Positions 19,305 through 49,727 of a stretch of DNA of 49,727 nt are shown here, piece by piece. Origin of the DNA: Bacillota bacterium (GTDB lineage: Bacteria; Bacillota; DULZ01); NCBI GenBank assembly GCA_041655595.1, contig JBBAFB010000003.1, positions 1 through 49,727 of the forward strand. The letters run 5' to 3'. Under the pieces are notes generated by a model. The model was not told the origin of the DNA. It was given only the letters and a program-made list of their open reading frames with translations, and ran no database searches. Position numbers and translations under genes: made by a program. Positions within the stretch are counted from its first letter, which is position 1. Each line of letters starts with the position of its first letter.

Positions 19305-19319
19305 CGCAATTTCCTTTCT

Positions 19320-23109: not shown

Positions 23110-23119
23110 GTTGCTCCTC

Positions 23120-23959: not shown

Positions 23960-24486
23960 ATTACCACCTCCCCTTCACTTTGCACGCCACCGGTTTCTGT
24001 TTCTGTCCCAAAGCCAATATCAAATTTGACCAACTTAACTTCTTCCCAGGAAATGATCTTTCCTTCAATTTTCTGTGCCATTTCTTCCGCCTGTTCTTGC
24101 GATTTAAAGGCCACTATTCCAAAGCTCATGGGTGTATCAATTCTACCTTGAACATAAAAGGCTTCCTTTGCCGGAGCCCACTCAGTTGTTGCAAAATCCT
24201 TCACATATATTGCACCCAGCGACCTTTCCTCCTCTAAACCTAATCTTTTCAAATAAAGTATCAAGCAACCAATATCATCAAAATTTTCGTGTTGCCCAAG
24301 ATTGTTAATTACCTGGCCTGCAAATCGTAAGTCTATAATACTCATTCTGCAAACTGGACAATCATCGAGGGTCGGATCAATAACCCTTGGTTCCAAATCA
24401 AAACTACTTCCGCATCCTGATAGCAAAAACAATAAAATCAACAAAAATGTAATTGGTAATAGCCTTTTATTTAACACTACATTCAC
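23956..24486 (-). CDS. nosL: NosL copper-chaperone lipoprotein
   Basis: 176 aa. Lipobox LLSGCGS. NosL-type CPVCRM motif close to the N-terminus. Confidence 0.8.
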   Translation of the reverse strand: MNVVLNKRLLPITFLLILLFLLSGCGSSFDLEPRVIDPTLDDCPVCRMSIIDLRFAGQVINNLGQHENFDDIGCLILYLKRLGLEEERSLGAIYVKDFATTEWAPAKEAFYVQGRIDTPMSFGIVAFKSQEQAEEMAQKIEGKIISWEEVKLVKFDIGFGTETETGGVQSEGEVVM

Positions 24487-25966
24487 CCCGTTTAAGCAAG
24501 TTCCGGAACGAGCCCACTTTTTTATCCAAGGAAAGCCCTCTCCAGTAAAGAATAATTCCAGCCAGCAACATTGCCAATGAATAAAGGGCCAGGGTTTTAT
24601 TTGTAGCTTGTTTATTTATTTGAAGGAATTCCGGGATTCTTACTGCCGCCGGATTTATTAAGGGGTATGGATCCTCTGCTTTTGGGATAGAAATAACTGG
24701 AAAAGTCTTTTCACTAAACTCTAGTGCTTTTGCGGCAGGGCTATTTAAAAATAGCCTAACCCCCGGTGCCTTACCCATTAAATAGGTAAAGACATCCCCC
24801 GTAAAATGTGGGATATCACCCACTCCATCTTGATCCAAATCAAACCCTCGGTAATCACTCCAGTAGTTTCCCCGACCGCTAGCATGAAACTCATTACCAC
24901 GGCCAACTGTAAAGGCAATTAGAGCGATTTGCTGCATATTGTCAATAAAGTTGTTATCTATAAAAACGTTATCAGTAGAGCTTGAGATTAGGTCTAGCCC
25001 AATATCATTCATGGCTATTAAATTGTTGCGAATGGTATTGTGCATAGAATGATCCAAAAAAAACCCTCTCGTATTATCAAACACAATATTTCCTTCTGCA
25101 AGGCTGTGGTCGCAATGAGCAAATAGAATCCCATAGGCACGATGTCCTCGGCTTCCTGCCAAAACATTATTTCTGAAAACAATATACTTTGAAAACATGG
25201 GTGCGGCACCTGCAACGTTATCTAACAAAATATTACCTTCAAAGTTGTTATACCATGAATACATATAGTGAATACCATAACGGACGTTAAAAATTTGGTT
25301 ATTAATTACCCTATTATGATAAGAGTAATCAAAATAGATCCCATCCCTAGTATCAGTAATTATATTACTTTCCATCAAATTTTCTGGGGAATCAAATAGG
25401 TGTATTCCATCACCGCCATCACCTGCAAATTTAATGTCATAACTTGAGGCTGCCGTGTTTTCGTCCAATGTAACTTTACCTAAATCTCTAACAACCGGTC
25501 TGCCCTTTATTAAGTTACGCCTGATCACATTTTCAGATGCTCTTTCTAAATAAACCCCAAAAAGATTATTAATAAAACGGTTATCTTCCACTAAGTTATT
25601 ATTACTTTTGATTTTAATTCCGGCGTTGGTCTCCTCTAGAATTTTTCCACTAAAGATAATTTCAAAACCTTTAACAGTTACCTCATCCGCTTCAATTGTG
25701 ATTACATCACCAAGCCCCTCCCCATCAATAATAGGCATTTCAAGCCCTAAAAGCCGTATGGATTTATTAATCACCAATCGCCCATCATACTTACCAGGGT
25801 GCACCCGTATAACATCCCCATCCTCCGCCGTTGTTAAGGCTTTTTGAATAGTAGGTATAGGGCCACCAGGCCAGACTTCGATAGTGCGTGCTTCCGCCGG
25901 GCTGGACAGGATTAAAAAGCACCCCAGAGACAATAAAATTATTGCTCTACTGCCGGCTTTTCCCAT
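24467..25966 (-). CDS. nosD: NosD periplasmic right-handed beta-helix protein
   Basis: Start moved to the ATG at 25964-25966 (GGAGG 8 nt upstream). Signal peptide, many parallel beta-helix repeats (N-I/N-N-x-I patterns), C-terminal TM anchor. Confidence 0.85.
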   Translation of the reverse strand: MGKAGSRAIILLSLGCFLILSSPAEARTIEVWPGGPIPTIQKALTTAEDGDVIRVHPGKYDGRLVINKSIRLLGLEMPIIDGEGLGDVITIEADEVTVKGFEIIFSGKILEETNAGIKIKSNNNLVEDNRFINNLFGVYLERASENVIRRNLIKGRPVVRDLGKVTLDENTAASSYDIKFAGDGGDGIHLFDSPENLMESNIITDTRDGIYFDYSYHNRVINNQIFNVRYGIHYMYSWYNNFEGNILLDNVAGAAPMFSKYIVFRNNVLAGSRGHRAYGILFAHCDHSLAEGNIVFDNTRGFFLDHSMHNTIRNNLIAMNDIGLDLISSSTDNVFIDNNFIDNMQQIALIAFTVGRGNEFHASGRGNYWSDYRGFDLDQDGVGDIPHFTGDVFTYLMGKAPGVRLFLNSPAAKALEFSEKTFPVISIPKAEDPYPLINPAAVRIPEFLQINKQATNKTLALYSLAMLLAGIILYWRGLSLDKKVGSFRNLLKRGECSVK

Positions 25967-26535
25967 CGCCGAAACCTCCAAAGGGCTATCAACATAAGAA
26001 TTATACCAGCCCCTAAAAGATAGCCCCCAAGCTGAAAACTACTATAGGTGGTGAAATTTGCTAGCTGGTTTTGCCCCATCATAGGTGGGACGAAGGGGGG
26101 AATTTTGATAGCCGCCATTGGATCCAAGTCTGTACCATACTTTCTCAGCCAAAACCACAGGTCATAAAGGCCCAACAAACCCCCGGCACCGGCGATAACA
26201 AATGCCGTACTGCCAAGCCACACCTTCCCTGAAATTGCCGTTAAAAAAGCTATGGCCACAATTGCACCCACAATGTAAACCATAAACTGCAACTCGGGAA
26301 AATCGGCCTCAGAAATTTCCTTCATTCCGATGTAATGATTCAAATTGTTTAAAATATCAATTTTCCCACCAATCTTATTAGCAAACACCTCCATCCTGAG
26401 ACCCTCGGGATAAATTGTTGCAATTAATTCCAGTCGCCACCAGGGGAAAAATAAGCACGCTACCAACAACAGCCCAGCAATCACAAATAAAATTCTACCG
26501 GTGATACTAAGTTTTCCATTTAAAAACTTACCCAT
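25939..26535 (-). CDS. nosB: NosB-like integral membrane protein (the gene that follows nosZ in clade II clusters)
   Basis: 198 aa with ~4 TM helices, directly downstream of nosZ. The assignment rests on position and topology only. Confidence 0.55.
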   Translation of the reverse strand: MGKFLNGKLSITGRILFVIAGLLLVACLFFPWWRLELIATIYPEGLRMEVFANKIGGKIDILNNLNHYIGMKEISEADFPELQFMVYIVGAIVAIAFLTAISGKVWLGSTAFVIAGAGGLLGLYDLWFWLRKYGTDLDPMAAIKIPPFVPPMMGQNQLANFTTYSSFQLGGYLLGAGIILMLIALWRFRRWEKPAVEQ

Positions 26536-26579
26536 TTGAATTCTCCTTTCATTTAAGTCATCTAAATAGAAAAGGGGGG

Positions 26580-26603
26580 AGCCTGTATTTTGACATACAG
26601 GCT
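26580..26603 (-). other. stem-loop immediately 3' of nosZ
   Basis: Perfect 9-bp inverted repeat AGCCTGTAT-N6-ATACAGGCT. On the minus strand it is followed by CCCCCCTTTTCTATTT. Possible partial terminator or mRNA-stabilising hairpin inside the operon. Confidence 0.5.
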
Positions 26604-26626
26604 AACTCCCTTTAGTCTGAGAGGAT

Positions 26627-28540
26627 TTAGGACTTTGGCTTAACCAGCAGGAACCCTTGCATTTCCTGGTGTAAGGCTGAGCAGAAATTAGTGCAGTAGA
26701 AGGGATATACCCCAGGTTTATCTGCAACAAATTTCATTGAGGTTGTCTGCCCGGGCTGTACTTCAATATTTAAATCATAGAGGCAGATACCAAAGCCATG
26801 GGTGATATCTTCGTCAAAATCGGTATTGGTTACATACCAAGTAATTTCATCTCCCTCGTCCACTTCTACAATATCCGGGTAATAACGGCTTCGGAAGCTA
26901 TTCATATAAACAGTAACTTGGTTTCCGTTTTTCTCAGTTCGTGCATCTTCCTTTGTATAAACAGCCCCCGGTTGGCTTTCATCCTTGGGATAAATCTTAA
27001 AGACATTTTTCGTAATTTTATCTGCTTTAATCATTTGTGCAAAGTGGGGCTCGGGATCAACCGGGTTATCATAAAGAATCTTCATTTTGGGGGTGGTAAG
27101 GTCAATCAACTGCATACTTTCAGGGTGGGATGGCCCAACAGGCAAAAACTTGTCTTTAGCAAGTTTGTTTAGGGAAATCAGATATTTCCCATCCGGTGAA
27201 ACAGTGTCACCTTCTGCTGCAACTAAGTGGCCTGGGCAGTAATGTACAGGAATTTTATCCACGACTTCAAAAGTATCTAAACTCCACTTGGCTATGGCAC
27301 TTTCAACAAATAAAGTTGTGTAGGCGTGGCCCGTGTTGTCGAATTGTGTATGCAAGGGCCCTAAGCCAACCTCCACTTCAGCAACCCTAACTTTCTCATA
27401 ATTTACAATTGGGAAGCCAGCCTCTTCCCCTTGAAAATCGTTGTTTTCAACACATTCCATGAACTTTTCAAAACTAAATACCGTTGTGATAGGAGCTAAT
27501 TTTCCATTACCAACAATGTATTTTCCGTCCGGTGTAACATCTACACCATGTGGGCTTTTGGCACAAGGTATTAAATATATGGCACCTGGGACATCCAAGG
27601 GGTCAATCACATTTGCACCATCAATTACGGTGTACTTGCCATCCTTCCAGGCCTGTTCCATCATTCTCCAGTTCACAGCCACTATATAATCCCTTTCACG
27701 TTGGGAAGCATTTACCTCCAGTAAAGTGTATGCTTCCTCCGTATTGTAGCTAGTCAAAAATGCCCAACCATCGCTGCCTAATTTACCCGCATCCGAAAGG
27801 TCATAGGACCAAGGAGGTAGCAGGACCTGCCATGGGTTGGACATTTCTCCATCTTCGGGATCAATGGCGATAGCAGCCAATATACATTTGTAATCTTCAC
27901 TAAAATTCTCAATCGGTGAGTAGGTACCATGGGGAACGGGCCCTGCGAATCGTGACGCCATCATATAATATTCGCTATTAGGGGTAACAAAAGCAGCTCC
28001 ATGAGGCCCATAAATATTTGGCACAGTCCCTAGAATTTGACCGGTTGTAAAGGAATCCAGATCAATTCTTGCTACCCTACTGTTGGCGTTATCATTAATA
28101 AATAGCCAGCGACCATCATATTCTCCATTGGTTTCACTTAAACCCGGGTGATGAGCATCCCCCCATCTCCACTCACCTAACATCTCTTTTGATTCTTCTG
28201 TCCAACCATAACCAACAGCCGATTCAGGTGTAAAAACGGGAATCGTTCTGATTCTTCGCATGGACGGAACACCGTAAACAAACACATGCCCTGAATGTCC
28301 ACCCGAAGAAAACATATAGTATTCATCATGTTCCCCGGGTGGCACATATGTTTTTAATGCTGCATCTACGATATCATCAGGGACGCCTGTTTTTGATGCT
28401 ATTGCCCCGGTAAAAATTCCTTCCGTGCCACTGACTTCCCCTTTTGGTGACAATTGAGAAGATAGGACCACCGCTAAAATCAAACCAAGTAATAAACCAG
28501 CCAGGGATAAGGCAATCTTTTTGAAATTTCCATTACCCAT
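26627..28540 (-). CDS. nosZ: nitrous-oxide reductase, clade II (Sec-dependent) type
   Basis: 637 aa. Hydrophobic signal peptide without a twin-arginine. CuZ region WGDAHHPG. C-terminal CuA motif H-x34-C-x3-C-x3-H-x2-M (HGFGI...CTNFCSALHQEM). Confidence 0.95.
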   Translation of the reverse strand: MGNGNFKKIALSLAGLLLGLILAVVLSSQLSPKGEVSGTEGIFTGAIASKTGVPDDIVDAALKTYVPPGEHDEYYMFSSGGHSGHVFVYGVPSMRRIRTIPVFTPESAVGYGWTEESKEMLGEWRWGDAHHPGLSETNGEYDGRWLFINDNANSRVARIDLDSFTTGQILGTVPNIYGPHGAAFVTPNSEYYMMASRFAGPVPHGTYSPIENFSEDYKCILAAIAIDPEDGEMSNPWQVLLPPWSYDLSDAGKLGSDGWAFLTSYNTEEAYTLLEVNASQRERDYIVAVNWRMMEQAWKDGKYTVIDGANVIDPLDVPGAIYLIPCAKSPHGVDVTPDGKYIVGNGKLAPITTVFSFEKFMECVENNDFQGEEAGFPIVNYEKVRVAEVEVGLGPLHTQFDNTGHAYTTLFVESAIAKWSLDTFEVVDKIPVHYCPGHLVAAEGDTVSPDGKYLISLNKLAKDKFLPVGPSHPESMQLIDLTTPKMKILYDNPVDPEPHFAQMIKADKITKNVFKIYPKDESQPGAVYTKEDARTEKNGNQVTVYMNSFRSRYYPDIVEVDEGDEITWYVTNTDFDEDITHGFGICLYDLNIEVQPGQTTSMKFVADKPGVYPFYCTNFCSALHQEMQGFLLVKPKS

Positions 28541-28645
28541 AAAAACAGTTCCTCCTTACTATGTTAAAATTTTTGATTTTCTTTTTAAATATTGGTTTTT
28601 TAACAGCTTCAAATAAACAGTCTTTAATTATCCTTCCTCCGATAC

Positions 28646-29209
28646 TTATTCTTGCCCCCCTTGCCCTAATCCAGTTTCGCCTTCATCATAGGCTGATAAC
28701 CGCCCCGCTACCCTTCCATCGTGGGCTTTTTTGATGAGATCTAAGATTATCACCTTATCCTCATCATTTAATCGGTCTGGAATGATTGCCCCCATTGTAC
28801 CCTCAGGCTCCCGAAGAAAATCTTCCAGACTTCTACCGAAGCGATCTGGGACATCAGTATAAGCTATGGATAAGTCTGGTCCCGTTTCCCCACCTTTAAG
28901 TTCATAATAAGTAATGCGATGGCATTGAACACAGGCCTTCGTTGTAAAAATCTCCTCCGGCATTCCAATATTACTAACACCTTGGCTGCCGGATGTTGCA
29001 GTGGTTACCTTTTGCTGGCCCTCAGGGGTTAAACCCAAATTATAAACCAAAGCAACCTCTTCCTCCATCAGGGGATAGTATTTCGGGGCTGAAATTACAC
29101 TGCCAGTTAGCCCCACCAAGAAACCCATCCCGATCCACATGGCAAGAAGGACTACGGTTTCCTTGCGGATTATACTCACTTTCTCACCTTCCTTTCCCAA
29201 CTTCAGCAT
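28646..29209 (-). CDS. membrane-anchored monohaem c-type cytochrome (likely electron donor to NosZ)
   Basis: One TM helix, then CVQCH. An alternative GTG start at 29179 has a better SD (GGAAGGTGA). Confidence 0.7.
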   Translation of the reverse strand: MLKLGKEGEKVSIIRKETVVLLAMWIGMGFLVGLTGSVISAPKYYPLMEEEVALVYNLGLTPEGQQKVTTATSGSQGVSNIGMPEEIFTTKACVQCHRITYYELKGGETGPDLSIAYTDVPDRFGRSLEDFLREPEGTMGAIIPDRLNDEDKVIILDLIKKAHDGRVAGRLSAYDEGETGLGQGGQE

Positions 29210-29221
29210 TTTGTTGAGTTT

Positions 29222-29611
29222 TTAATTGATTAAACCTATATAGGTCAACACAACCATTATTATCAAGGTTATTTCCGCTAAATAGATTAACCAAGCTCGA
29301 TCAGCAGCTTTTTTGGATTTTCCCCTGTCTAACCACGGGACTGCAATTAAACCAATTATCAGCAACACCGGCAAAAACACACCCAATATATCCGGCACAA
29401 TCGCCAATAGACCAAAAATCCACAGAAAATACCACTCTGGCATAATGTTTTCCGGAGTCATAATGGTATTTGCCGGCGGCCCAAGGTGGGCGGGCCAAAG
29501 ACCTGCCAAAATGAGCACAAATCCAAGAATTGCAAAAGCCACTGATACCTCAGTAATTAAGTGATGAGGGAAGAAAGGTACAGATCCTTTTCGTTTTTCG
29601 ATTGTATTCAA
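29222..29611 (-). CDS. cytochrome b6f/bc subunit IV-like protein (C-terminal half of a split cytochrome b)
   Basis: 129 aa, 3 TM helices, PEWYFLW quinol-site motif. TTG start with AGGAGGTGA upstream. Confidence 0.7.
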   Translation of the reverse strand: MNTIEKRKGSVPFFPHHLITEVSVAFAILGFVLILAGLWPAHLGPPANTIMTPENIMPEWYFLWIFGLLAIVPDILGVFLPVLLIIGLIAVPWLDRGKSKKAADRAWLIYLAEITLIIMVVLTYIGLIN

Positions 29612-29622
29612 ATTATCACCTC

Positions 29623-30261
29623 CTATAGCCCACCAGATATGCCTTGCTTACGAACTAAGTAAAAATGAACGATTAAAAGCCCAATAGTGGACACAGGTAA
29701 GACGCAGATATGCAAGATATAAAAACGCATAAGGGTATACCCTGTAACCTTGCTACCGCCTTGTACAATCGTTAATAGCTTTGACCCGATTAACGGGACT
29801 GTGCCCATGATTTTAGCTCCTATTACCGCCGCCCAATAACCGACCTGGTCCCAAGGCAGTAGGTACCCTGTAAAAGAAAATACAAAAACTAATACAAGTA
29901 ATAAGGATCCAGCCACCCAATTAAATTCCCTGGGATGTTTATAGGCACCGGTGTAGATAACTCGCAACATGTGTAGCACCACCATAATTACCATTAAATT
30001 TGCCGAAATATTATGGATGGAGCGAATTGCTGCTCCCATGGTCACCTCATTTTCTAAAAACAAAATACTTTGATAAGCCAACTCAGGTGTAGGTTTATAA
30101 TACAAAGCTAAAATAGCCCCAGTGATTCCCTGTATGAGAAACAGTAAAAATGTAATTCCTCCAAAACAATACATGAAATTCCGTACCTCTTTTGCCACCG
30201 GCTTAGAGGACATATCATGCCAAATACCCTTTAGGGTAATTTCTTTCTCCTCTACCGCCAC
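29623..30261 (-). CDS. cytochrome b6-type subunit (N-terminal four-helix di-haem half)
   Basis: Start moved to the GTG at 30259-30261, directly after the Rieske stop with GGAGGTGG upstream. 4 TM helices with conserved His pairs (SIHNISANLMV..LHMLR; FYILHICVLP). Confidence 0.85.
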   Translation of the reverse strand: MAVEEKEITLKGIWHDMSSKPVAKEVRNFMYCFGGITFLLFLIQGITGAILALYYKPTPELAYQSILFLENEVTMGAAIRSIHNISANLMVIMVVLHMLRVIYTGAYKHPREFNWVAGSLLLVLVFVFSFTGYLLPWDQVGYWAAVIGAKIMGTVPLIGSKLLTIVQGGSKVTGYTLMRFYILHICVLPVSTIGLLIVHFYLVRKQGISGGL

Positions 30262-30263
30262 CC

Positions 30264-30725
30264 TTACACCACCTCCTTTTGTACCAAAATAACCCCTTCT
30301 TCCACCCAAGCTGTTAACTCTGCTAAAGGTTTCGGTGGAGGGCCATGCAATACATTACCATCCTCGTCAAAAATACCACCATGACAGGGACATTCAAACT
30401 GACGTTTTTTATCGTCCCAGGCTACGATACATCCTAAGTGAGTACATACCCTTGAAAAGGCCCTATATTTGCCATCCTTTTTAAATAGAATAGCCGGAAA
30501 GCCATCATATACAAAATCAAAGGGCTTGCTTGAAATATTATCTTCTTTAGCAACTGCCATTCTAGGTGGTTGGGGCTTAAGAGCCCTGGGAGCATCTATG
30601 GCACCTCCTAATGCGGCCAAGGGAACTACAGCCGCGACAACTGCGGGTGCTGTTGCCACTAAACCCAAAAACTTTCTTCTTGTAACTTCATCATGATCGT
30701 ATTTTTCACTGCACATTTCCTTCAC
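30264..30725 (-). CDS. Rieske [2Fe-2S] protein with Tat signal
   Basis: 153 aa. TRRKFLG twin-arginine motif. Rieske boxes CTHLGC and CPCHGG. Exact start is ambiguous (GTG at 30725 or ATG at 30716). Confidence 0.9.
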   Translation of the reverse strand: MKEMCSEKYDHDEVTRRKFLGLVATAPAVVAAVVPLAALGGAIDAPRALKPQPPRMAVAKEDNISSKPFDFVYDGFPAILFKKDGKYRAFSRVCTHLGCIVAWDDKKRQFECPCHGGIFDEDGNVLHGPPPKPLAELTAWVEEGVILVQKEVV

Positions 30726-30930
30726 ATTCCTCCCTTAAGTAGACTGTTCGGAACGCATTAATAGCCAAAGCAGCCGCTAAACATATCAAACCGGCAAATA
30801 TGCTAACCCAACGGCTATTACCTGCGGCCCAGCTCCTGGCAATCATGAAAACTAAGGTAATTGAAGCCCATGTTCCAAGGCCCGCAATAATTATTGCTTC
30901 TTTGTAACCTGCCTTACTCCAAAAATTCAT
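30706..30930 (-). CDS. small two-TM membrane protein of unknown function
   Basis: Start set to the ATG at 30928-30930 (GGGAG 8 nt upstream). 74 aa, two hydrophobic helices. Embedded in the nos operon. Confidence 0.4.
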   Translation of the reverse strand: MNFWSKAGYKEAIIIAGLGTWASITLVFMIARSWAAGNSRWVSIFAGLICLAAALAINAFRTVYLREECEGNVQ

Positions 30931-30950
30931 TCTTTTCACTCCCTTTCAGC

Positions 30951-31265
30951 TTATCTTGGATAGGCGGTTTCTAGGTATTCAATAATTTGTTCTGTTTCGC
31001 TATCCGTGAAAAACCCACCAAAGTCAACCATTAATTCCACAATTTCTGGCCAAGTAGCGGACCCTTGGTAATTTTGAACCCGATCAACCTCATGACAGTT
31101 TGTACAAGTCGACTGAAATGTTAAATAATTAGCATCTCCTGTTGCTTTGGAATCAGGAGGTAAAGGAATTGCATAGGCCGAAACAAAGATAAAGCCTATT
31201 ACCAAGCCAACAATTAACATTTTGCTGGTTAGGGTCCAAGTCAAAACCTTTTTAGCTGTTTGCAT
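30951..31265 (-). CDS. membrane-anchored monohaem c-type cytochrome (first gene of the nos operon)
   Basis: 104 aa. N-terminal TM helix and CTNCH haem motif. SD AAGGGGGTGA 9 nt upstream. Confidence 0.75.
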   Translation of the reverse strand: MQTAKKVLTWTLTSKMLIVGLVIGFIFVSAYAIPLPPDSKATGDANYLTFQSTCTNCHEVDRVQNYQGSATWPEIVELMVDFGGFFTDSETEQIIEYLETAYPR

Positions 31266-31383
31266 TCTTTATTCTCACCCCCTTTCATTGCACTTCTCAA
31301 TTGTGATTTCTTTTTCAATCCCCCCTTGATATAACAAGGTTTCCAGATACCACTTTTAAAGGGAAACCTTTCACTAATTCTTT

Positions 31384-31400
31384 ATGCAACTTTCGTGCCA
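31384..31400 (-). promoter_or_regulatory. sigma-54 (-24/-12) promoter of the nos operon
   Basis: Minus strand reads TTGGCACGAAAGTTGCAT, which matches the consensus TGGCAC-N5-TTGCW at every fixed position. It lies ~120 nt upstream of the first cytochrome c start. Confidence 0.75.
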
Positions 31401-31443: not shown

Positions 31444-31470
31444 AAAAATGTGGGGAGTATATGCCCCACA
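31444..31470 (-). terminator. probable terminator of the upstream ABC/DUF4418 operon
   Basis: Minus strand reads TGTGGGG-CATATACT-CCCCACA followed by TTTTTGTT. It sits ~45 nt upstream of the nos sigma-54 promoter. It could alternatively be an activator-binding palindrome. Confidence 0.5.
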
Positions 31471-31620
31471 CCAACCCATGTGTGCCCCAACTTTATTCCA
31501 CGGGGACAGCTTTTTGCCCATTTGAATATTTCCACAAACCTTTTTCCCAAAGAAAAATTGCACCCCGCCAATGTTTCAACGGGATGCATATTCAAAGAGA
31601 GGGTGGTTTTTGAAATATTT

Positions 31621-32040
31621 TTATATTGTTATTTCATCCTTAATAGTTTGCAAATACACACCCAACAGGACAATAATCCCCCCTAAAACATAGAACACCT
31701 TTGCGGTAGTATGACATTCCATGGGCATCATGCAAACTCCAATACCTAAATTAGTCGGCAATATTATTACTATTAATCCCAGGGTTGCCATTATTATCCC
31801 AAGACGCTTTTGGACTAATAATTCTTTGCTCAAAAATATCAACAAACCGGTAACTAGTATAACTAGTCCCAGCAAAACCCCCGCCTGCCCCGTATAATGA
31901 CATTTCATATGGACCATTTTACCCGTGGTCAATTCCAAAAGTTTTGCACATACCGGAGCTAATTGAAAAGGTGTTAGGACCACGACTGCTCCAATAATTG
32001 TGCCAACAAGACCGACCGCTTTGCTTCTTTTGTTATACAC
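31621..32040 (-). CDS. DUF4418-like four-TM membrane protein with Cys/His/Met motifs
   Basis: 139 aa. GTG start with AGGAGG 7 nt upstream. Motifs HMKCH and CMMPMECH face the same side between TM helices. Confidence 0.6.
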   Translation of the reverse strand: MYNKRSKAVGLVGTIIGAVVVLTPFQLAPVCAKLLELTTGKMVHMKCHYTGQAGVLLGLVILVTGLLIFLSKELLVQKRLGIIMATLGLIVIILPTNLGIGVCMMPMECHTTAKVFYVLGGIIVLLGVYLQTIKDEITI

Positions 32041-32107
32041 TTTAAAACCTCCTTTTAACTAGTTCTATTGTTAAGCTTTTTATATTGGGTTTAAGGTATT
32101 ATTGGGT

Positions 32108-32830
32108 TTATCTCGACAGATTTACAAACTGGCTTGCCACCTCTTTAAAAAAAGTCCTATTGAGGCAGCCCTGCTTTAAGGAGTAGACGTGCTCAGCATT
32201 TTTTGCAAGCACCACATCGTGGGTGGCAACAACAACTATTTTCCCTGTTCTTCCCTGTCCCATTAACCAATCACCTAAGTGCTGCCGTAAACTCTCATCC
32301 TGTTCCGCCGTTGGTTCATCTGCTAAAATTAAGTCCGGCTCATTTGCCAAGGCTCTAGCCAAAGCAACTCTACGCCTTTGGCCACCGCTTAATTGGTGAG
32401 GTAAAAATTGTGTTCTGTCCGCTAAATCTAGATCCTTTAAAAGAGTGTCTACCCTTTGGTTGGCTTGCATTTCATTCATTTTTTTTCTTCCTTTAATCCA
32501 AAGTGGCAATAAAATATTTTCCTTTACAGTTAGGGTAGGAATTAAATAACATCGCTGAAAAACGAAACCAATTTTGTATGAACGTAAGTAGGTCTTTTCT
32601 TTCTCATCCATCATGCAGATTGAGCGCCCATCAAAAATCACCTCTCCTTGGCTGGGTTTTAGCAAAAGGCCCAAAATATGCAGCAAAGTGCTTTTACCAC
32701 TCCCCGAGGGACCTAACAAGCTAACTGTATCACCGGATTTTAAATTCAAATTAACTCCCCTGATTGGCTGCACCTGACCACCTAAGCCATCCTGGTAGAC
32801 ATGAGAAACGTCTTTTAATTCAATTTCCAT
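32108..32830 (-). CDS. ABC transporter ATP-binding protein
   Basis: 240 aa. Walker A GPSGSGKST, signature LSGGQRRR, Walker B ILADEPT. Confidence 0.9.
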   Translation of the reverse strand: MEIELKDVSHVYQDGLGGQVQPIRGVNLNLKSGDTVSLLGPSGSGKSTLLHILGLLLKPSQGEVIFDGRSICMMDEKEKTYLRSYKIGFVFQRCYLIPTLTVKENILLPLWIKGRKKMNEMQANQRVDTLLKDLDLADRTQFLPHQLSGGQRRRVALARALANEPDLILADEPTAEQDESLRQHLGDWLMGQGRTGKIVVVATHDVVLAKNAEHVYSLKQGCLNRTFFKEVASQFVNLSR

Positions 32831-32843
32831 CTTTTCACCACCC

Positions 32844-34046
32844 TTATTTTAACTCTCCTTCGGTAAGAACAACTACAGGATCAAGTTTGGCTGAGGTTCT
32901 TGCAGGCCCCAAAGCGGCCAAAGTACTAATGAAGATAACCAATAAGACTGCAAAAAATAAAATACCCAGTAGCTGTAAACCTAGTGGTAGTAAGAAAGGA
33001 AATGAACTGTGTTTTTCTATAAAATTTTTCAAAAACCAAATAAAACCAAAGCCCAAGAAAACTCCTATGCCTCCTGCAACAAAGGCAGTGGTAAAGGTTT
33101 CCGCCATAATTAAATTAAATAGACCCTTTTGCCCCATTCCCAGAGCCCTTAAAAGCCCTAACTCTTCCTGCCTTTCCATTACTAAAGACGAATAACGAGA
33201 TAACAATGAGGCTAAGGTCAATCCAATTATTAAAGCTGCCAATAACCAAGTTAAAACTTGAAATACCTTTAACTGTTCTTTTAAATCTAAAAATATTTTG
33301 GCCGATGCCATAGCCTTTACCCCAGGTATGCGCCCAATTTGTCTTGCTAGAATTGCGGGATCATAATTGCTTTCTACTTGTATTAAAACTGCTGAAACCA
33401 ACTCCAAAGGGTCACCTTGCTCCTCCCATATCTCAACCAAAAAAGGACTCCCTGATGCTAAACTTCTTGCGGTTTCGATGGGTACGAAAATAGTTTTATC
33501 AACGCTACCCCCCAAAGGTTTTAAATAATCTACTACCTGAAAGGCCTCTCCCAAAATTAATACCCTGTCTCCGAGAAAGGCCGGAACTCCGCCACCTACA
33601 ACTACTTCTTTTTCTTTTAACTCTCTTCCTAAACCTATAGATAAAAGGCGATTTACCAGAAAATCATTTTCCGGATCGTAACCGACTAAACGGTATTCCT
33701 CTGGTAGGCTACAACAACTTTGATTTAAAGTTTGACTAAAAAACTGAGCTGTGGCTGCCTTTACACCCGGTATTAGAGCTATTTCCTCTACTATTTCTTT
33801 TTTCATATAAATATTTGCGGGAGAACCAGTAAATAGCACCTGCCCTGCCTCAAACTCCGCGGAAGAAGGCAGTGCTAGTATATCGGCACCTAAGTTATCG
33901 GCCGTTCCTTTTGCACCCCTTTCCAACCCCCAAACGGTTAAAAAACAAGTTACCAGGGCAGCAGTGCAAAAGCAAACCACAAAAACAGTTAAACCTGTTT
34001 GCCATGGACGGCGCCGCAAATTTCTACTGATTAAACGCCAATACAT
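32844..34046 (-). CDS. FtsX/MacB-type ABC transporter permease
   Basis: Start moved to the ATG at 34044-34046 (GGGGGGTGG upstream). TM1, a large extracytoplasmic domain, then 3 C-terminal TM helices. Confidence 0.8.
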   Translation of the reverse strand: MYWRLISRNLRRRPWQTGLTVFVVCFCTAALVTCFLTVWGLERGAKGTADNLGADILALPSSAEFEAGQVLFTGSPANIYMKKEIVEEIALIPGVKAATAQFFSQTLNQSCCSLPEEYRLVGYDPENDFLVNRLLSIGLGRELKEKEVVVGGGVPAFLGDRVLILGEAFQVVDYLKPLGGSVDKTIFVPIETARSLASGSPFLVEIWEEQGDPLELVSAVLIQVESNYDPAILARQIGRIPGVKAMASAKIFLDLKEQLKVFQVLTWLLAALIIGLTLASLLSRYSSLVMERQEELGLLRALGMGQKGLFNLIMAETFTTAFVAGGIGVFLGFGFIWFLKNFIEKHSSFPFLLPLGLQLLGILFFAVLLVIFISTLAALGPARTSAKLDPVVVLTEGELK

Positions 34047-34088: not shown

Positions 34089-34104
34089 AGCAAAAAACAT
34101 GCCA
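34089..34104 (-). promoter_or_regulatory. sigma-54 promoter of the FtsX-ABC/DUF4418 operon
   Basis: Minus strand reads TGGCATGTTTTTTGCT (GG-N10-GC spacing correct), ~45 nt upstream of the permease start. Confidence 0.65.
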
Positions 34105-34344
34105 AGATATTTGTTGCGGAATTATGCACTTACAAGTGAAACAATTATCTTATTCGCCTTTTATGCTATTTTGAGCGAGACATGTCTGACCCTACTGTCC
34201 CCTCCCTGCCCCTAATTTCTGTAACACAAAATACTTACAAGGTGGCAAGCCTTGCCCCCAAACGCTTGATTTATGGTCCTTGCCATAAACAATTAACTGG
34301 GTTTTTTCGCCTTAAATATCAGCATTTGATTACCTTTGAAAAGT

Positions 34345-34360
34345 TGGAATGTTTTTTGCT
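34345..34360 (+). promoter_or_regulatory. sigma-54 promoter of the lipoprotein gene
   Basis: Plus strand reads TGGAATGTTTTTTGCT, identical to the divergent promoter at 15 of 16 positions. It lies ~52 nt upstream of the ATG at 34412. Confidence 0.6.
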
Positions 34361-34411: not shown

Positions 34412-34972
34412 ATGCAACAAAGAAAAATTAATAAAATTCTATCAGTTCTATTGTCTATTCTTATTTTAGGCTCCATCACCAGTTGCGGACAAAACACACT
34501 CCCGGGAACAAATGAAATAAAAGATGCCGATCAGACTGTCCACAACCATCAGAGTTTTAGCACTGTCTACGAGCTGGATCAAATAATAGAGTTACACCCT
34601 ATTAAAGTGAGACTGGTAAATACCGGAATAATTTCTAACCCTTTATATGAAAAAGGAAGTGATGATCAGAAGGGACATTTGGCATTAGGTCTGGAAGTAG
34701 GAAATGTATCAAGCGATCTGGCATGGTTTTTTTCCGAACAATCCGAGATAATTCTGAATTCGGGTGAAATCTTAGAAACGGATGTAAACACATCCTCTGA
34801 TTTGGGAGGAAGTTTTCCACCCCACAGATTGAAAAAAGGGTTTTTAGTTTTTCCTTTTAAAGATACGGAGCCAAATACAATCAAAGAATATGTTTTAAAA
34901 ATCAAAGCCCCCTTAAATAGCAAACAAATTTCCATTGGGGAGGATTTAGAATTAAAAATTAACCTAAAATAA
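34412..34972 (+). CDS. secreted lipoprotein, DUF4352-like beta-sandwich
   Basis: 186 aa. Lipobox GSITSCG. Family call is tentative. Confidence 0.55.
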   Translation: MQQRKINKILSVLLSILILGSITSCGQNTLPGTNEIKDADQTVHNHQSFSTVYELDQIIELHPIKVRLVNTGIISNPLYEKGSDDQKGHLALGLEVGNVSSDLAWFFSEQSEIILNSGEILETDVNTSSDLGGSFPPHRLKKGFLVFPFKDTEPNTIKEYVLKIKAPLNSKQISIGEDLELKINLK

Positions 34973-35009: not shown

Positions 35010-36386
35010 CTAAATTAAGTTATATTTATTTAATAAACGGTGAATCGTTTTTCTGTCAATCTCTGCAGTTATAGCTGCCTGGGTTACATTTCCATCATGC
35101 TTTTCCAATAAATTTTCTATATATTTTATTTCAAAATCTTTTACCCAGTTTTGTTTTGCCACATGAAAAGGCAGATCGAAAAGCATTTGATTTGATCTAT
35201 CTTCATTATTTTTAAGAAGGTTTGGGGGTAAATCTTCAGGCAATATTGTTTCCCCTTCACAAAGTGAGATAGCTCTTTCTATCACATTTTTTAACTCCCT
35301 AACATTACCCGGCCAGTTATAACTTTGTAAAATCTCCATCGTTTCAGCTGAAACCCCGCTAATTTTCTTTTGTGCCGTCTCTGCAAATTTGCGACTAAAA
35401 AAATACACTAGTAGAGGGATATCCTGCTGCCTTTCTCTTAACGGTGGTAGTTTCAAATTAATTACATTAATTCTATAGTATAAATCGTCTCTAAATTCTT
35501 TGTGTTGAATTGCCTCTTCTAAATCGCGATTTGTTGCGGAAACTAGGCGGAAATCTACTTTAATCAACTGATTTCCCCCCACTCTTCTAAATGAGCGTTC
35601 TTCTAAAGCTCTTAACAACTTTGCCTGTAAAATCGGACTCATTTCACCTATTTCATCTAGGAAAAGAGTACCCTTATCTGCCAGTTCCATTAAACCCTTT
35701 TTAGTCATGTGGGCCCCGGTAAAGGCACCTTTTTCGTGACCAAAAAGTTCACTTTCCAGTAAATTATCCGGCAAAGAAGCGCAGTCAACTGGTATAAAAG
35801 GTCCTAGGCTCCGATTGCTGTTTTTGTGGACACTTCTGGCGATCAGTTCTTTCCCTGTACCACTTTCCCCTTTGATCAGTACTGCTGCTTCACTGCCACC
35901 TAATTTACCGATGGTTCTAAAAATTTCTTGAAGCCCACCGTTAGCGCCAATAATATTTTCTGTGTGGAGGGGCTCTTGGATTTGCATTCTTAATAATCGG
36001 TTTTCTTCCCTTAATGCTTTTTCCCGCAAGGCTTTTTCAATCACAATCTGCAATTCATCAACGGAAAAAGGTTTAGCGAGATAATCCCGTGCTCCACCTT
36101 TCATAGCCCTGACCGCAGTATCTATGCTGGCATAACCCGTAATAACAATTACACATGTGTCGGGAAAAAGCTCCTTCGCAACTTTTAAAACTTGAAATCC
36201 ATCTACCTCCGGCATTTTTAAATCAGTAATAATCAAATCCGGTTGTATTTTTTCCATTTCGGCTACCGCTTTCGCACCCTCATTAAAGTTTACCGGTTTA
36301 TAGCCCATTTTTTTAACAACACGCGAGCAAGTTTCAAGCATATCAAGTTCATCATCAACAAGCATTACAACCCTTGGTTCTTCCAT
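35010..36386 (-). CDS. sigma-54-dependent NtrC-family response regulator (REC + AAA+ + Fis-type HTH)
   Basis: 458 aa. Receiver (DDE...IITDLKMP), Walker A GESGTGKE, sigma-54 contact loop GAFTGA, C-terminal HTH (GNVTQAAITAEIDRKTIHRLL). Confidence 0.9.
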   Translation of the reverse strand: MEEPRVVMLVDDELDMLETCSRVVKKMGYKPVNFNEGAKAVAEMEKIQPDLIITDLKMPEVDGFQVLKVAKELFPDTCVIVITGYASIDTAVRAMKGGARDYLAKPFSVDELQIVIEKALREKALREENRLLRMQIQEPLHTENIIGANGGLQEIFRTIGKLGGSEAAVLIKGESGTGKELIARSVHKNSNRSLGPFIPVDCASLPDNLLESELFGHEKGAFTGAHMTKKGLMELADKGTLFLDEIGEMSPILQAKLLRALEERSFRRVGGNQLIKVDFRLVSATNRDLEEAIQHKEFRDDLYYRINVINLKLPPLRERQQDIPLLVYFFSRKFAETAQKKISGVSAETMEILQSYNWPGNVRELKNVIERAISLCEGETILPEDLPPNLLKNNEDRSNQMLFDLPFHVAKQNWVKDFEIKYIENLLEKHDGNVTQAAITAEIDRKTIHRLLNKYNLI

Positions 36387-36392
36387 CTATTA

Positions 36393-37658
36393 CTACTCCC
36401 TTATGCTAATATATGGGAAGTAAATACTAAATCTACTTCCCTTACCCAGTTCGCTGGATACATTTATGGTACCACCATGGTCGCCAATAATTTTTAAACT
36501 AACGGGTAAGCCCAAACCAGTGCCCAGGTCTCTGCTTTTAGTGCTAAAAAAAGGATCAAAAAGTTTAGCTATAGTTTCTTCTGTCATCCCCTCGCCAGTA
36601 TCTTCTATATCCAGCCTGTTCACCTTTAACTCCGGCAAGTTTCGGCAAACTATAAAAATATTTCCACCACGTGGCATGGCATCCCCGGCATTGGCGATTA
36701 GATTAACTAATACTTGTTGAAGCTGCTCCTTATTCCCTTCCACTACAATGGAATCCGGCAATTTTATTTTAAACTCAATCCCTTTTCTAAGAAATTGTCT
36801 TTTAAACCAATCAACAGTTTCATTCACTAAAGGTTTCAAATCAACCAACTCTGTTTCTGCAATGGGTGGCCTTGTAAAAGTAAGCAGTCCCCTTGTAATA
36901 TGACTGATTCTTTCTATATGTTTTTTTATAATTTCCAAATCTTTAACCAATTCGGGAGACAAACTACTACCCATCTCTAAAAATATTAACCCCAACCTTG
37001 CACTGATGACACCCACCGGGTTATTTATTTCATGCGCCAAATTTGCAGCCAGTTGTCCTGCCGCTGCTAGCCTTTCGGTTAGTATCATCTGATTTTGTGC
37101 CTTTTCTAATTCCTCAATACTTTCTCTGAGGGCCTCATTTAGCCCGCAAATTTCTTTATTGGCTTTTTCTAGGCTGTCCCTTTCTTCAGCTAAATTGTTT
37201 ATTAAACGATCCCTATGCAGGGTTGCGGCTAATTGATGTCCAATGGCCATGATAATTTCCATATTGGCTCTACTCAATTTTTCTTCCCCGGGGTTTTTTA
37301 AAGTTATTACCCCTAAAACTTCAGTTCCTGCAACTAGTGGTATGCAGACATGACAAAGGGAGTAACACTCTTTCTGAACCACACCACAACAGTGAGACCT
37401 TTTATCTGCATTAATAATAATTGGGAGCTGGTCATTATAAACCTTACATTGGTGTTTTTTATCAATGGTACTACAGACAAAATTGCCCCCATCTTGTAGC
37501 TTAATTTGGGACTTATAAGGACTAAATGCCTTATTTAATTCGTTTTTTGCTGCATCAAGCATTTCATCAATAGACAAAGGTAAAAAGCTGGTAATATTAT
37601 TAATTTTAATTAAAGCCTCCGTTTGCAAGTTCAGCTTCCTGTCAAGCAAAAACCTCAC
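36393..37658 (-). CDS. soluble sensor histidine kinase with a Cys-rich GAF-like N-terminal domain
   Basis: 421 aa with no TM helices. GAF-like region contains 7 Cys, including CC-x6-C-x3-C-x2-C. H-box LAHEINNPVG, N box NLIANAGDA, G boxes DTGEGM and GTGLGL. The start may be the TTG at 37628 (AGGAAG SD) rather than the GTG at 37658. Confidence 0.85.
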   Translation of the reverse strand: MRFLLDRKLNLQTEALIKINNITSFLPLSIDEMLDAAKNELNKAFSPYKSQIKLQDGGNFVCSTIDKKHQCKVYNDQLPIIINADKRSHCCGVVQKECYSLCHVCIPLVAGTEVLGVITLKNPGEEKLSRANMEIIMAIGHQLAATLHRDRLINNLAEERDSLEKANKEICGLNEALRESIEELEKAQNQMILTERLAAAGQLAANLAHEINNPVGVISARLGLIFLEMGSSLSPELVKDLEIIKKHIERISHITRGLLTFTRPPIAETELVDLKPLVNETVDWFKRQFLRKGIEFKIKLPDSIVVEGNKEQLQQVLVNLIANAGDAMPRGGNIFIVCRNLPELKVNRLDIEDTGEGMTEETIAKLFDPFFSTKSRDLGTGLGLPVSLKIIGDHGGTINVSSELGKGSRFSIYFPYISIRE

Positions 37659-38664
37659 CCTTTACCACTTTACCCATTATACTAATGTTTGCCGGATTTG
37701 CATTTAACGGGACTTCACACCCTGTACTTAAAATAAAACCTTTCCCTTTGCTCCCAATATCAAGCAAATCCTTACATTGTTTAGCTATATCTTCTGTCTT
37801 TAGATTAATTAGATCAAAAGGTTTAATGTTACCAGCTAAGGCGAGATCAGGTGCTAGATCCATACACTCTTTTAAAGAAACTTCATAATCAATTGTGGCC
37901 AAATCAACACCGCAATCTTTATAGTAAGGTATAATGTATTTTGTCCTACCCGTAATCATTAACCAATTTATTTTTGCACCTTCAAGACGAAAGTGAGAAA
38001 ATAGTTCCTTTAAGAGGGGGGCTACAAATTTGCGAAAAATCCGAGGAGGAATAATATTTTGCGAAGCGGTTGGTTCCATGATGATAATTATTGAAGCCCC
38101 CGACCTAATCAGGGCCTTTCCATAATCTTTGCAAACATGAAATGTTTGTCTTAACAAGCTTCGAAACTTATCTGGTTCATCTACTAATAAATACAGCAAT
38201 TGATCTAAACCCATTAGTTGTCCCGCAATGCTTGTCGGTCCAACCACACACCCAACCACCGGTATATCATCCTTCACATTTTCCTTTAAGATAGCACATG
38301 CTTTAATTACTTCCCGCATCCTGCCCGCTGTATAAGGATCGAATAACGGCAGGTCCTTGATCTTTGATAGACTAGAGAAAACAGGTCTTGTCACATAAGG
38401 GTAATCATTTTCAGGAAAATATGTTTTACAGCCCAGAACCTCCGCCTCTAGGGAGTTATCACCATAGGCAAAAACAGCATCATAGCCAAAGTGCTTTTGT
38501 GCCCTTAGTTGACAATCTGCCATTATTTCTCCGTTGTCCAAATAATCTTTGAGCCAAACCCCCTGAAAAATTGCAGCATAACCAAATACAAGCGGAATGC
38601 AAATACAATCAGTATGTTTTTTTTTGCCTTCAACCATTGCTATCATTTTTTGCAATACGGTCAT
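37642..38664 (-). CDS. UroD-superfamily MtaA/MtbA-like corrinoid methyltransferase homologue
   Basis: Start moved to the ATG at 38662-38664 (GGAGTG upstream). 340 aa. URO-D/MT2-A-like length and sequence, and it follows a corrinoid protein gene. Confidence 0.75.
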   Translation of the reverse strand: MTVLQKMIAMVEGKKKHTDCICIPLVFGYAAIFQGVWLKDYLDNGEIMADCQLRAQKHFGYDAVFAYGDNSLEAEVLGCKTYFPENDYPYVTRPVFSSLSKIKDLPLFDPYTAGRMREVIKACAILKENVKDDIPVVGCVVGPTSIAGQLMGLDQLLYLLVDEPDKFRSLLRQTFHVCKDYGKALIRSGASIIIIMEPTASQNIIPPRIFRKFVAPLLKELFSHFRLEGAKINWLMITGRTKYIIPYYKDCGVDLATIDYEVSLKECMDLAPDLALAGNIKPFDLINLKTEDIAKQCKDLLDIGSKGKGFILSTGCEVPLNANPANISIMGKVVKGEVFA

Positions 38665-38668
38665 AATG

Positions 38669-39349
38669 TTACACTCCTTCTTTCTTTCGAAGATAGTCAA
38701 TTACGTCAAAAGCAGTATTAGCAACAAAATCAACATTTAAGTCCTTAGGGTTTGATTGGCGGGTGGCACCACCCCCCGCTAAAACAAGGACACCTTCCAA
38801 ATCAATCGCACCTAATGCTGGCTTCACTTCCTTAATGTAATGCATGGTGGTAGTGATTAAACTGCTAATGCCGATATATTTTGCGCCTTCTTTTTTAGCC
38901 TCCATTGCAAAAACTTCCGGCTCGACATCCTTTCCCAAATCTACCACTCTATAGCCGGCCATTTTTAGTAAGATGGCCACTATATTTTTACCAAGGTCGT
39001 GAATATCCCCCTTAATGGTCCCTAAAACAAAAACCTCTTTACCTTTATACCAGGTATCTAAAGAAACACACTCCCCTTCACCTAAACGTGGACAAATAGA
39101 TTGTTCCATAACTTCCATAACAGCCCTGCCAGCCAATAATATTTCCAAAAGATTAAAATGGTCATTATTACATTTAACATCCAAAGAAACTAGGGCTTCA
39201 GTTAGGCCTTCCTCTACAACTTGACGCACATCAACACCTAGAGCCAGTAAGTTTTCCGCTACCCTGACCGCCTCGGTAGCCTGTCCATCTGCCACAAGGT
39301 CTGCTAGTCTTTTTATTTCATTTTTTCTTGAATCTTTTTTTGCTGCCAT
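38669..39349 (-). CDS. corrinoid (B12)-binding protein, MtaC/MtbC-like (cap + Rossmann domain)
   Basis: 226 aa. Base-off/His-on signature GDIHDLGKN ... SSLITTT ... LAGGGA. SD GGAGG 6 nt upstream. Confidence 0.85.
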   Translation of the reverse strand: MAAKKDSRKNEIKRLADLVADGQATEAVRVAENLLALGVDVRQVVEEGLTEALVSLDVKCNNDHFNLLEILLAGRAVMEVMEQSICPRLGEGECVSLDTWYKGKEVFVLGTIKGDIHDLGKNIVAILLKMAGYRVVDLGKDVEPEVFAMEAKKEGAKYIGISSLITTTMHYIKEVKPALGAIDLEGVLVLAGGGATRQSNPKDLNVDFVANTAFDVIDYLRKKEGV

Positions 39350-49504: not shown

Positions 49505-49550
49505 AAAGGGACAGGGGGACAAAGGGACAGGGGGACAGGTGTTTTGTCCC
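49505..49550 (+). repeat. perfect 16-bp tandem duplication (AAAGGGACAGGGGGAC x2) followed by an inverted GGGACA/TGTCCC arm
   Basis: 49505-49520 is identical to 49521-49536. Then GGGACAGGTGTTTTGTCCC forms a hairpin. The array lies ~140 nt upstream of the 187-aa gene. Confidence 0.85.
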
Positions 49551-49727
49551 AACATACCGCCTTTAATCATTTTAGTGGTAACCAAGGTGAGAATTTTAAA
49601 TAGAAGATTCTTTACAAGTTAAAGTGAATTTCCTTGACCTGATCTTGTAATTCATAGTTACTGTTCAAAAAGCCACTCCCCTTTTTCGATTATTTATGTT
49701 ATTTTTTTAAAAAACGACTCCTTGTTA

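Follow-up and report, generated by a model that had tools for sequence, protein, structure and literature searches.

Divergent predicted sigma-54 promoters and a candidate shared activator site at the head of a nos gene cluster in a Bacillota bacterium

Two back-to-back promoter boxes and the genes they face

This report concerns a 240-bp intergenic spacer (34105-34344) in a stretch of 49,727 nucleotides from a Bacillota bacterium (assembly GCA_041655595.1, contig JBBAFB010000003.1, positions 1 to 49,727; hereafter "the window"). The spacer is flanked by two outward-facing 16-mers, TGGCATGTTTTTTGCT on the minus strand (34089-34104) and TGGAATGTTTTTTGCT on the plus strand (34345-34360), which differ at a single base and are recovered by a repeat finder as an inverted repeat of 18 nt with 94% complementarity. 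The original prediction interpreted the pair as twin sigma-54 promoters, one for each flanking gene set, with a shared activating region between them for the neighboring NtrC-type regulator. Reading the sequence confirms the coordinates, the one-base difference and the length of the spacer. The boxes, which we call P_abc (minus strand) and P_lipo (plus strand), also face their presumed genes in the correct orientation: the ATG of an FtsX-type permease gene lies 42 nt beyond the end of P_abc and that of a lipoprotein gene 51 nt beyond the end of P_lipo, with a ribosome-binding site in between in both cases. Transcription is predicted to start at ~34078 and ~34371, which would leave 5' untranslated regions of ~32 nt and ~41 nt, respectively.

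The P_abc operon (31621-34046, minus strand) has the same gene order in all of the relatives and encodes, by Pfam, a MacB/FtsX-type permease (32844-34046), an ATP-binding cassette (ABC) ATPase (32108-32830) and a DUF4418 membrane protein (31621-32040), all on the minus strand. The DUF4418 protein has Cys/His/Met-rich motifs, MKCH and CMMPMECH, that resemble metal ligands. These motifs prompt the speculation that the co-regulated ABC system deals with a metal, for instance copper destined for the nitrous-oxide reductase NosZ. On the other side, P_lipo faces a gene (34412-34972, plus strand) for a 186-aa lipoprotein with a lipobox cysteine at residue 25, from a family represented in 11 loci. This protein had been described as DUF4352-like, a label that is weakly supported: four of the 11 orthologues match DUF4352 (PF11611), with a best E of 0.002, while the protein from the window has no Pfam match. 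Its structural model is of low confidence (predicted local distance difference test score, pLDDT, 63), and the best fold matches are uncharacterised beta-sandwich proteins (E 0.007-0.07).

What is the evidence that the two boxes are sigma-54 promoters? First, the GG and GC dinucleotides of both boxes are exactly 10 bases apart, a separation that sigma-54 promoters require. With the preceding T included, P_abc matches 12 of 12 and P_lipo 11 of 12 specified positions of the Clostridiales sigma-54 consensus, TTGGCATNNNNNTTGCT (PMC6615313). Second, such sequences are over-represented in the window. The 16-mer has three matches with two or fewer mismatches (0.45 expected), a number reached in none of 100 shuffles, and the strict pattern TGGHAYN5TTGCD has four matches (0.65 expected), a number reached in one of 100 shuffles; three of these four fall within the nos gene cluster described below. 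The loose pattern TGG-N9-TGCW is not enriched in the window (20 matches, 14.6 expected), so it is the full consensus and the conservation that make the boxes significant. A further sigma-54-like box, the fourth, TGGAACGCTTTTTGCT (43809-43824, minus strand), was rejected as a candidate promoter. It falls inside a P-type ATPase gene, in the 3' part, with a YicC-like gene downstream of it, and is probably due to chance because of this position and because it has no upstream activator site. Assembly artefact is ruled out for the region as a whole, since contigs from four other public runs carry the identical sequence with zero differences; this identity is uninformative on selection.

Third, the pair is conserved. 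Only two homologues of the lipoprotein are detectable in the protein collection. The permease leads to Desulfitobacterium, Desulfosporosinus, Thermanaeromonas and uncultured Bacillota, and the resulting comparison set consists of 10 related loci (permease 54-83% identical) plus the window, 11 loci in all. Nine of the 10 relatives have a common gene order: corrinoid protein, MtaA-like protein, kinase, activator, lipoprotein (on the opposite strand), permease, ATPase, DUF4418 protein, cytochrome c, Rieske protein, cytochrome b and NosZ. In the remaining relative, Desulfosporosinus youngiae (L020), neither the regulator genes nor the lipoprotein gene is found at the locus. The divergent sigma-54 pair is kept in all 10 relatives, L020 included, and thus in 11 of 11 loci with the window. 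The permease-side box reads TGGCA[CT]-N5-TTGC at the same place in all 11 loci; in 10 of the 11, the lipoprotein-side box departs systematically from the consensus by having A or T, not C, after TGG. Relative to its counterpart in the closest relative (L003, permease 83% identical), the window has boxes identical at 14-15 of 16 positions and a spacer identical at 41%. Across the ~11 kb scanned per locus, boxes and activator sites are almost confined to these intergenic regions, and neither is present at the distant homologue loci in Actinomycetota and Spirochaetota. The near-identity of the two boxes in the window is a separate matter. The identical T-rich filler between -24 and -12 is confined to the window and L003, and the fillers differ in the other loci, so the near-identity is not a property of the system. 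Taken as a claim about promoter identity, the original prediction is thus well supported by the consensus fit, the enrichment over shuffles and the conservation of the pair.

Candidate activator sites and a third predicted promoter

The spacers of the related loci have GGGACA and TGTCCC half-sites in common, mostly paired into a 16-bp palindrome of the form GRGRCA-N4-TGYCYC, as in D. meridiei (GGGACATTAATGTCCC) and L004 (GGGACATATATGTCCC). A symmetrised matrix was built from 15 such sites, all from other loci, none from the window and all with N4 spacing, which themselves score 16-26. The highest-ranking match to this matrix in the whole 49.7-kb window, at 14.6 bits, lies in the spacer between the two boxes. 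This predicted core activator site, or upstream activating sequence (UAS), is GAGACATGTCTGACCC (34177-34192), which divides into GAGACA-TGTC-TGACCC; measured from its center, the -12 elements of P_abc and P_lipo are 94 bp and 174 bp away, respectively. At a spacing of 9-11 bp from the core site there are two more half-sites, TGTCCC (34196-34201) and TGCCCC (34207-34212), and the same layout of a palindrome and two half-sites is seen in L014, L017, L019, L020 and L022. Half-sites are enriched in the spacer (five versus 0.7 expected; Poisson P ~8e-4). In six relatives (L005, L016, L017, L019, L020 and L022), the -12 elements of both promoters are 86-108 bp away from the center of the palindrome, and this placement is the strongest argument for what would be a shared enhancer. 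The distances in the window, 94 and 174 bp here and ~73 bp at the third promoter described below, all lie within the range of ~70-250 bp upstream of the promoter that is expected of a UAS-type inverted repeat.

The comparison also changes how other repeats in the spacer are viewed. The perfect palindrome AGACATGTCT is present at 34178-34187, as had been reported, and is only an overlapping part of the 16-bp site. A second palindrome, GGCAAGCCTTGCC, is likewise where it was said to be (34244-34256); it is not conserved in L003 and represents at most a degenerate second site. This uncertain element, GTGGCA-N5-TGCCCC (34242-34258), consists of half-sites with N5 rather than N4 spacing, contains GGCAAGCCTTGCC, and has its center ~108 bp from the -12 of P_lipo. 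GGCAAGCCTTGCC was also considered as a terminator and rejected, since the match is weak and not conserved. The third reported repeat, ACTTACAAG, does occur twice; the first copy lies at 34128-34136, rather than near 34124, and the second at 34233-34241. The repeat is not significant, since by estimate ~0.3 two-copy 9-mers would arise by chance in a region of this size; nor is it conserved.

A control region that the original prediction overlooked lies at the other end of the P_abc operon. A third sigma-54 box, TGGCACGAAAGTTGCA (31385-31400, minus strand), is upstream of the cytochrome c gene and is predicted to be a promoter, P_nos. It is preceded by the second-ranked matrix match of the window, the predicted activator site GGGGAGTATATGCCCC (31452-31467; 13.7 bits), whose center is ~73 bp upstream of the -12 of P_nos. 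A terminator-like hairpin with a T-run follows the DUF4418 gene (31559-31588, minus strand), with comparable hairpins in L003, L016 and L017. The order is therefore DUF4418 gene, hairpin, activator site and P_nos box, and the same trio of elements is found in L004, L016 and L017. In Desulfitobacterium and Desulfosporosinus, the gap between the DUF4418 and cytochrome c genes is short and boxless, so the nos genes there are probably read from P_abc.

The operon downstream of P_nos (22135-31265, minus strand) encodes, by Pfam, cytochrome c, a small membrane protein, a Rieske protein, cytochrome b (N- and C-terminal parts), a CxxCH protein, NosZ, a NosB-position protein, NosD, NosL, NosY and NosF. 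The label NosB refers to position only, as that protein matches no family. NosZ (26627-28540, minus strand) has the N-terminus MGNGNFKKIALSL, in which KK rather than RR is found, meaning that there is no twin arginine. The locus thus has the features of a clade II nos cluster, namely a Sec-type NosZ signal, a NosB-position protein, a Rieske/cytochrome b module and nosDFYL. From this gene content and the lack of a twin arginine in NosZ, it follows that the nos cluster headed by the divergent promoter pair is of clade II; the original prediction had missed that the pair belongs to a nos cluster. A second MacB-type system (18141-21583), located downstream of the nos genes, consists of an HlyD-like protein, an ABC ATPase and a MacB_PCD/FtsX permease.

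Several other sequence features of these regions were noted. A structured RNA leader downstream of P_nos (31266-31384) was considered and rejected: the only invariant feature is a GTGAA...TTCAC pair ~65 nt apart, and there is no covariation. TTCACAA motifs recur, and are enriched, between the activator site and P_abc in the spacers of Desulfitobacterium and Thermanaeromonas (L019 4840-4885, L022 4830-4860, L017 4811 and 4931), and are not found in the two control regions of the window. It is possible that a second regulator lies behind the TTCACAA motifs or the GTGAA...TTCAC pair. Some of the activator palindromes are located within longer hairpins that are trailed by T-runs and score as terminator-like (31447-31472 in the window, 4720-4770 in L021 and 4815-4865 in L005). 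In L021 (7385-7400) and L005 (7407-7422), a good palindrome, GAGACAAAAATGTCCC, is found just 5' of the ribosome-binding site of the cytochrome c gene and is not followed by a sigma-54 box. Lastly, the densest half-site cluster of the window is far from the nos genes, at 49506-49555, where four direct GGGACA repeats with 8-bp spacing are followed by TGTCCC (AAGGGACAGGGGGACAAAGGGACAGGGGGACAGGTGTTTTGTCCC). This cluster is upstream of a gene for a 187-aa protein of unknown function (48804-49367, minus strand), and there is no sigma-54 box nearby.

The adjacent regulator and the proposed circuit

Beyond the lipoprotein gene is a gene for an enhancer-binding protein (35010-36386, minus strand) with a receiver domain (PF00072), an AAA+ domain (PF00158) that includes GAFTGA, and a helix-turn-helix domain of the Fis type, HTH_8 (PF02954), with the recognition helix DRKTIHRL. 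An intact GAFTGA loop, Walker A and Walker B can be read in its translation, and the recognition helix is invariant in the nine regulators compared. The protein scores below every named NCBIfam equivalog cut-off tested (AtoC, NtrC, ZraR, NorR and GlrR), the best being AtoC (489 versus 714 bits). A histidine kinase gene (36393-37658, minus strand) is next; its product has a cysteine-rich, GAF-like N-terminus and no transmembrane or signal domain in a Pfam scan. The GAF-like domain has four to five conserved cysteines (e.g. C-K, CC, H-I-C-V-P-L), which suggest a metal or iron-sulfur cofactor.

Two more genes accompany the kinase. One encodes an MtaA-like protein that scores below the NCBIfam cut-offs (37642-38700, minus strand), and the other a corrinoid (B12-binding) protein with a D-x-H-x-x-G motif in its translation (38669-39349, minus strand). 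The corrinoid, MtaA-like and kinase reading frames overlap one another, and the corrinoid and MtaA-like genes are upstream of the kinase gene in all 12 kinase-bearing loci, where they are presumably co-transcribed with the kinase and regulator genes. In L023, a DUF1638 gene and a gene for a RACo-type reductive activase are found between the corrinoid/MtaA-like genes and the kinase gene. The LHICG segment of MtaA contains the residues of an H-x-C motif that we take to be zinc ligands in MtaA and CmuA. This segment aligns with WLMITG in the MtaA-like protein, and W-L-x-I-x-G is kept in all nine orthologues, so the MtaA-like protein probably has no zinc site.

Does the motif belong to this family of regulators? 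Two loci, L023 and L025, were retrieved by kinase homology alone (kinase 35% and 40% identical, respectively), without use of the motif. In both, the palindrome is found ~115-160 bp upstream of sigma-54 boxes. The palindrome and a sigma-54 box precede an oxidoreductase gene in L023, and the palindrome and sigma-54 boxes precede hcp and a nos-like cluster in L025. This recurrence ties the motif to the regulator family independently of matrix training. The nos-like cluster of L025 (7840-14957) encodes two nos_propeller proteins, one of them without a cupredoxin domain, two small cupredoxins and an Fer4_5 membrane protein; it is under the same arrangement of site and sigma-54 box, and hcp is under another copy.

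In the mechanism that we propose, the 240-bp spacer would be a bidirectional sigma-54 control region, with sigma-54 RNA polymerase sitting as closed complexes at P_abc and P_lipo. The neighboring two-component system would be the source of the activator: the GAF-like, cysteine-rich kinase would phosphorylate the NtrC-type response regulator, which would oligomerise at GAGACATGTCTGACCC and the two phased half-sites (34177-34212). DNA looping would bring the regulator to both promoters, which would be opened by ATP hydrolysis via the GAFTGA loop. The cytochrome c/Rieske/cytochrome b/nosZBDLYF operon would be under the third sigma-54 promoter (31385-31400) and the second copy of the site (31452-31467), which would turn it on. 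One regulon would thus span all three promoters and couple nitrous oxide (N2O) respiration to the MacB-type ABC transporter, the DUF4418 membrane protein and the lipoprotein. From the comparative evidence, we put the probability that the boxes function as sigma-54 promoters under the control of the adjacent regulator at about 0.8. We lean, with less assurance, toward a single site serving both promoters in this organism. The shared activating region of the original prediction, with its conserved palindrome between the boxes and a GAFTGA regulator next door, thus has comparative support.

There are several observations that weigh against this mechanism. First, the promoters themselves are not beyond criticism: P_lipo lacks the consensus C after TGG, rpoN is not within the 49.7-kb window, and none of the public RNA runs checked for the window sequence contains it. 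Sigma-54 itself does exist in the family, as SigL of the related D. hafniense (Dhaf_4719; PMC6615313 supplement), a point in favor of the mechanism. Second, the activator site of the window is imperfect. Its TGACCC half departs from the motif, its score of 14.6 bits is below that of every training site, and its position is asymmetric (94 versus 174 bp), which makes sharing less certain here than in the relatives. In L003, only half-sites are kept; the best score there is 5.4, and the site region aligns at 42%. Third, the link between site and regulator is not absolute. In D. youngiae (L020 4700-4900), both boxes and the palindrome are kept without an adjoining regulator, with zinc-ribbon genes in place of the lipoprotein and regulator genes, although a kinase orthologue is encoded elsewhere; the lipoprotein-side box at this locus looks like a relic. 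In addition, 80 of the 81 loci returned by a metagenome scan for the palindrome together with a sigma-54 box were analysed, and the regulators at these loci have other recognition helices and other targets, such as HlyD with an ABC transporter or an ammonium transporter. The same type of palindrome thus occurs beside unrelated regulators, meaning that the motif alone is not diagnostic of the protein that binds it. Corrinoid, MtaA-like, NosZ and Hcp genes are found in none of the 80 metagenome loci analysed, so the scan does not enlarge the regulon.

Could the same regulator act at each promoter through a site of its own? In that case, the array at 34177-34212 would serve P_abc, and GTGGCA-N5-TGCCCC (34242-34258) would serve P_lipo. 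The second element is composed of two recognisable half-sites, and the ~108 bp between its center and the -12 of P_lipo is the distance used by the sites of relatives; moreover, L004 has many sites across its spacer, and L021 has a second palindrome, AGACA-N1-TGTCT, near P_abc. However, the N5 spacing departs from the N4 of all 15 reference sites, the element scores under the listed matrix matches, it is not conserved in L003, and a single central site suffices in six relatives. We consider separate sites possible, and distinctly less probable than a shared one.

It is unlikely that the palindrome is bound by a different N-oxide regulator encoded elsewhere, be it a repressor or a further sigma-54 activator. 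Motif and regulator genes are found together in 12 loci, down to a kinase identity of 35% and with the recognition helix invariant, and 73-110 bp upstream of -12 is a typical position for NtrC-type activators. Such a regulator would account for the palindromes that precede sigma-54 boxes beside regulators with other recognition helices, and for D. youngiae, where the regulator genes are not next door to the boxes and site; D. youngiae nevertheless encodes the kinase orthologue. Least credible of all, and very improbable, is that the 16-mers are a chance resemblance or leftovers of an inverted duplication and that the genes use ordinary sigma-A promoters: P_abc is overlapped by a weak sigma-70-like match, TTGGCA-16-AATATT (9/12), and the identical T-rich filler is specific to the clade of the window, but sigma-70-like matches are no commoner than in shuffles (2 versus 1.8), the boxes are conserved in 11 loci despite diverged spacers, a GAFTGA regulator adjoins them, and a third box with a site of its own is upstream of the nos operon.

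Related systems and implications

How does the proposed circuit compare with known ones? The architecture, divergent sigma-54 promoters with an enhancer between them, is of a known, textbook kind. In E. coli, zraP and zraSR reportedly have divergent sigma-54 promoters with ZraR sites between them, an arrangement said to have been described by Leonhartsberger and colleagues in 2001. There, as here, outward-facing sigma-54 promoters flank sites for an NtrC-type regulator, and the product of one arm is a small protein, exported or periplasmic. The other arm in E. coli is the regulator operon, whereas here the regulator genes are beyond the lipoprotein gene and apparently have their own promoter. 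The recognition sequences differ as well, and the activator scores 377 bits against a ZraR cut-off of 760. Divergent sigma-54 operons are also known for hyc and hyp of E. coli (FhlA) and for flaN and flbG of Caulobacter (FlbD, ftr elements). These have in common with the present locus back-to-back sigma-54 promoters, enhancers between them and DNA looping; they differ in activator family, in signal (formate and a flagellar checkpoint, respectively) and in site sequence. They also use bending assisted by integration host factor (IHF), which to our knowledge is not known in Bacillota.

The present case resembles the sigma-54 regulons that were reconstructed for Clostridiales (Nie et al. 2019, PMC6615313) in promoter consensus, in having the regulator gene beside its target, and in having activator sites mostly 100-250 bp upstream. 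Many of the sites in that study are of the form TGT-N10-12-ACA, in contrast to the GGGACA-N4-TGTCCC found here. None of the 39 reconstructed regulons covers nos genes or the ABC/lipoprotein pair (PMC6615313). The D. hafniense counterpart of the regulator is Dhaf_0198, by gene-number arithmetic from nosZ (Dhaf_0209), and it is listed there only as a response-regulator-type activator (PMC6615313).

Known regulators of nosZ are of another kind: Crp/Fnr-type, NssR-like proteins in clade II Campylobacterota (PMC11539149), and FixK2, NnrR or DNR in clade I (PMC5582078, PMC1274295). Like the regulator proposed here, they control expression of nitrous-oxide reductase; unlike it, they are one-component regulators that act at sigma-70 promoters, rather than a two-component system with a sigma-54 activator. 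NorR is closer in that it is a sigma-54 activator for N-oxide metabolism with a GAF-type sensory domain in the pathway. The difference is that NorR lacks a receiver domain and senses nitric oxide (NO) directly, by a GAF domain within the same protein, whereas the GAF-like domain here is in a separate kinase; the activator scores 313 bits against a NorR cut-off of 476. Papers on these nos clusters mention no regulators (PMC11096178, PMC3306737), and nothing relevant was found in the literature on sigma-54, two-component or corrinoid control of nos genes, a search whose incomplete coverage does not prove novelty. A regulon of this design, in which three promoters and a two-component system linked to a corrinoid protein would govern a Gram-positive nos cluster, appears to be undescribed.

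What are the implications of such a circuit? First, the way in which clade II nitrous-oxide reductase genes are switched on is poorly known, notably in the Gram-positive non-denitrifiers that are counted on as N2O sinks. The locus offers a concrete, testable circuit, in which a single kinase/regulator pair would act on three sigma-54 promoters through one 16-bp site, and the circuit is conserved in cultured Desulfitobacterium, Desulfosporosinus and Thermanaeromonas. Second, the MacB-type ABC transporter, the DUF4418 membrane protein and the lipoprotein are predicted to be co-regulated accessory genes of these nos clusters. Third, the tight linkage to a corrinoid protein leads to a hypothesis for the sensing of N2O or a related signal. 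The combination of corrinoid and MtaA-like genes with N-oxide targets suggests a corrinoid-based N-oxide sensor, as a hypothesis only. The oxidation of cob(I)amide by N2O is a known chemical reaction. The sensory input might be the oxidation of a protein-bound cob(I)amide by N2O or NO, with the signal relayed via the cysteine-rich GAF kinase to the sigma-54 activator, a specific scheme that we regard as speculative and rather doubtful. If true, this would be a biological N2O/N-oxide sensor governing nos and hcp genes.

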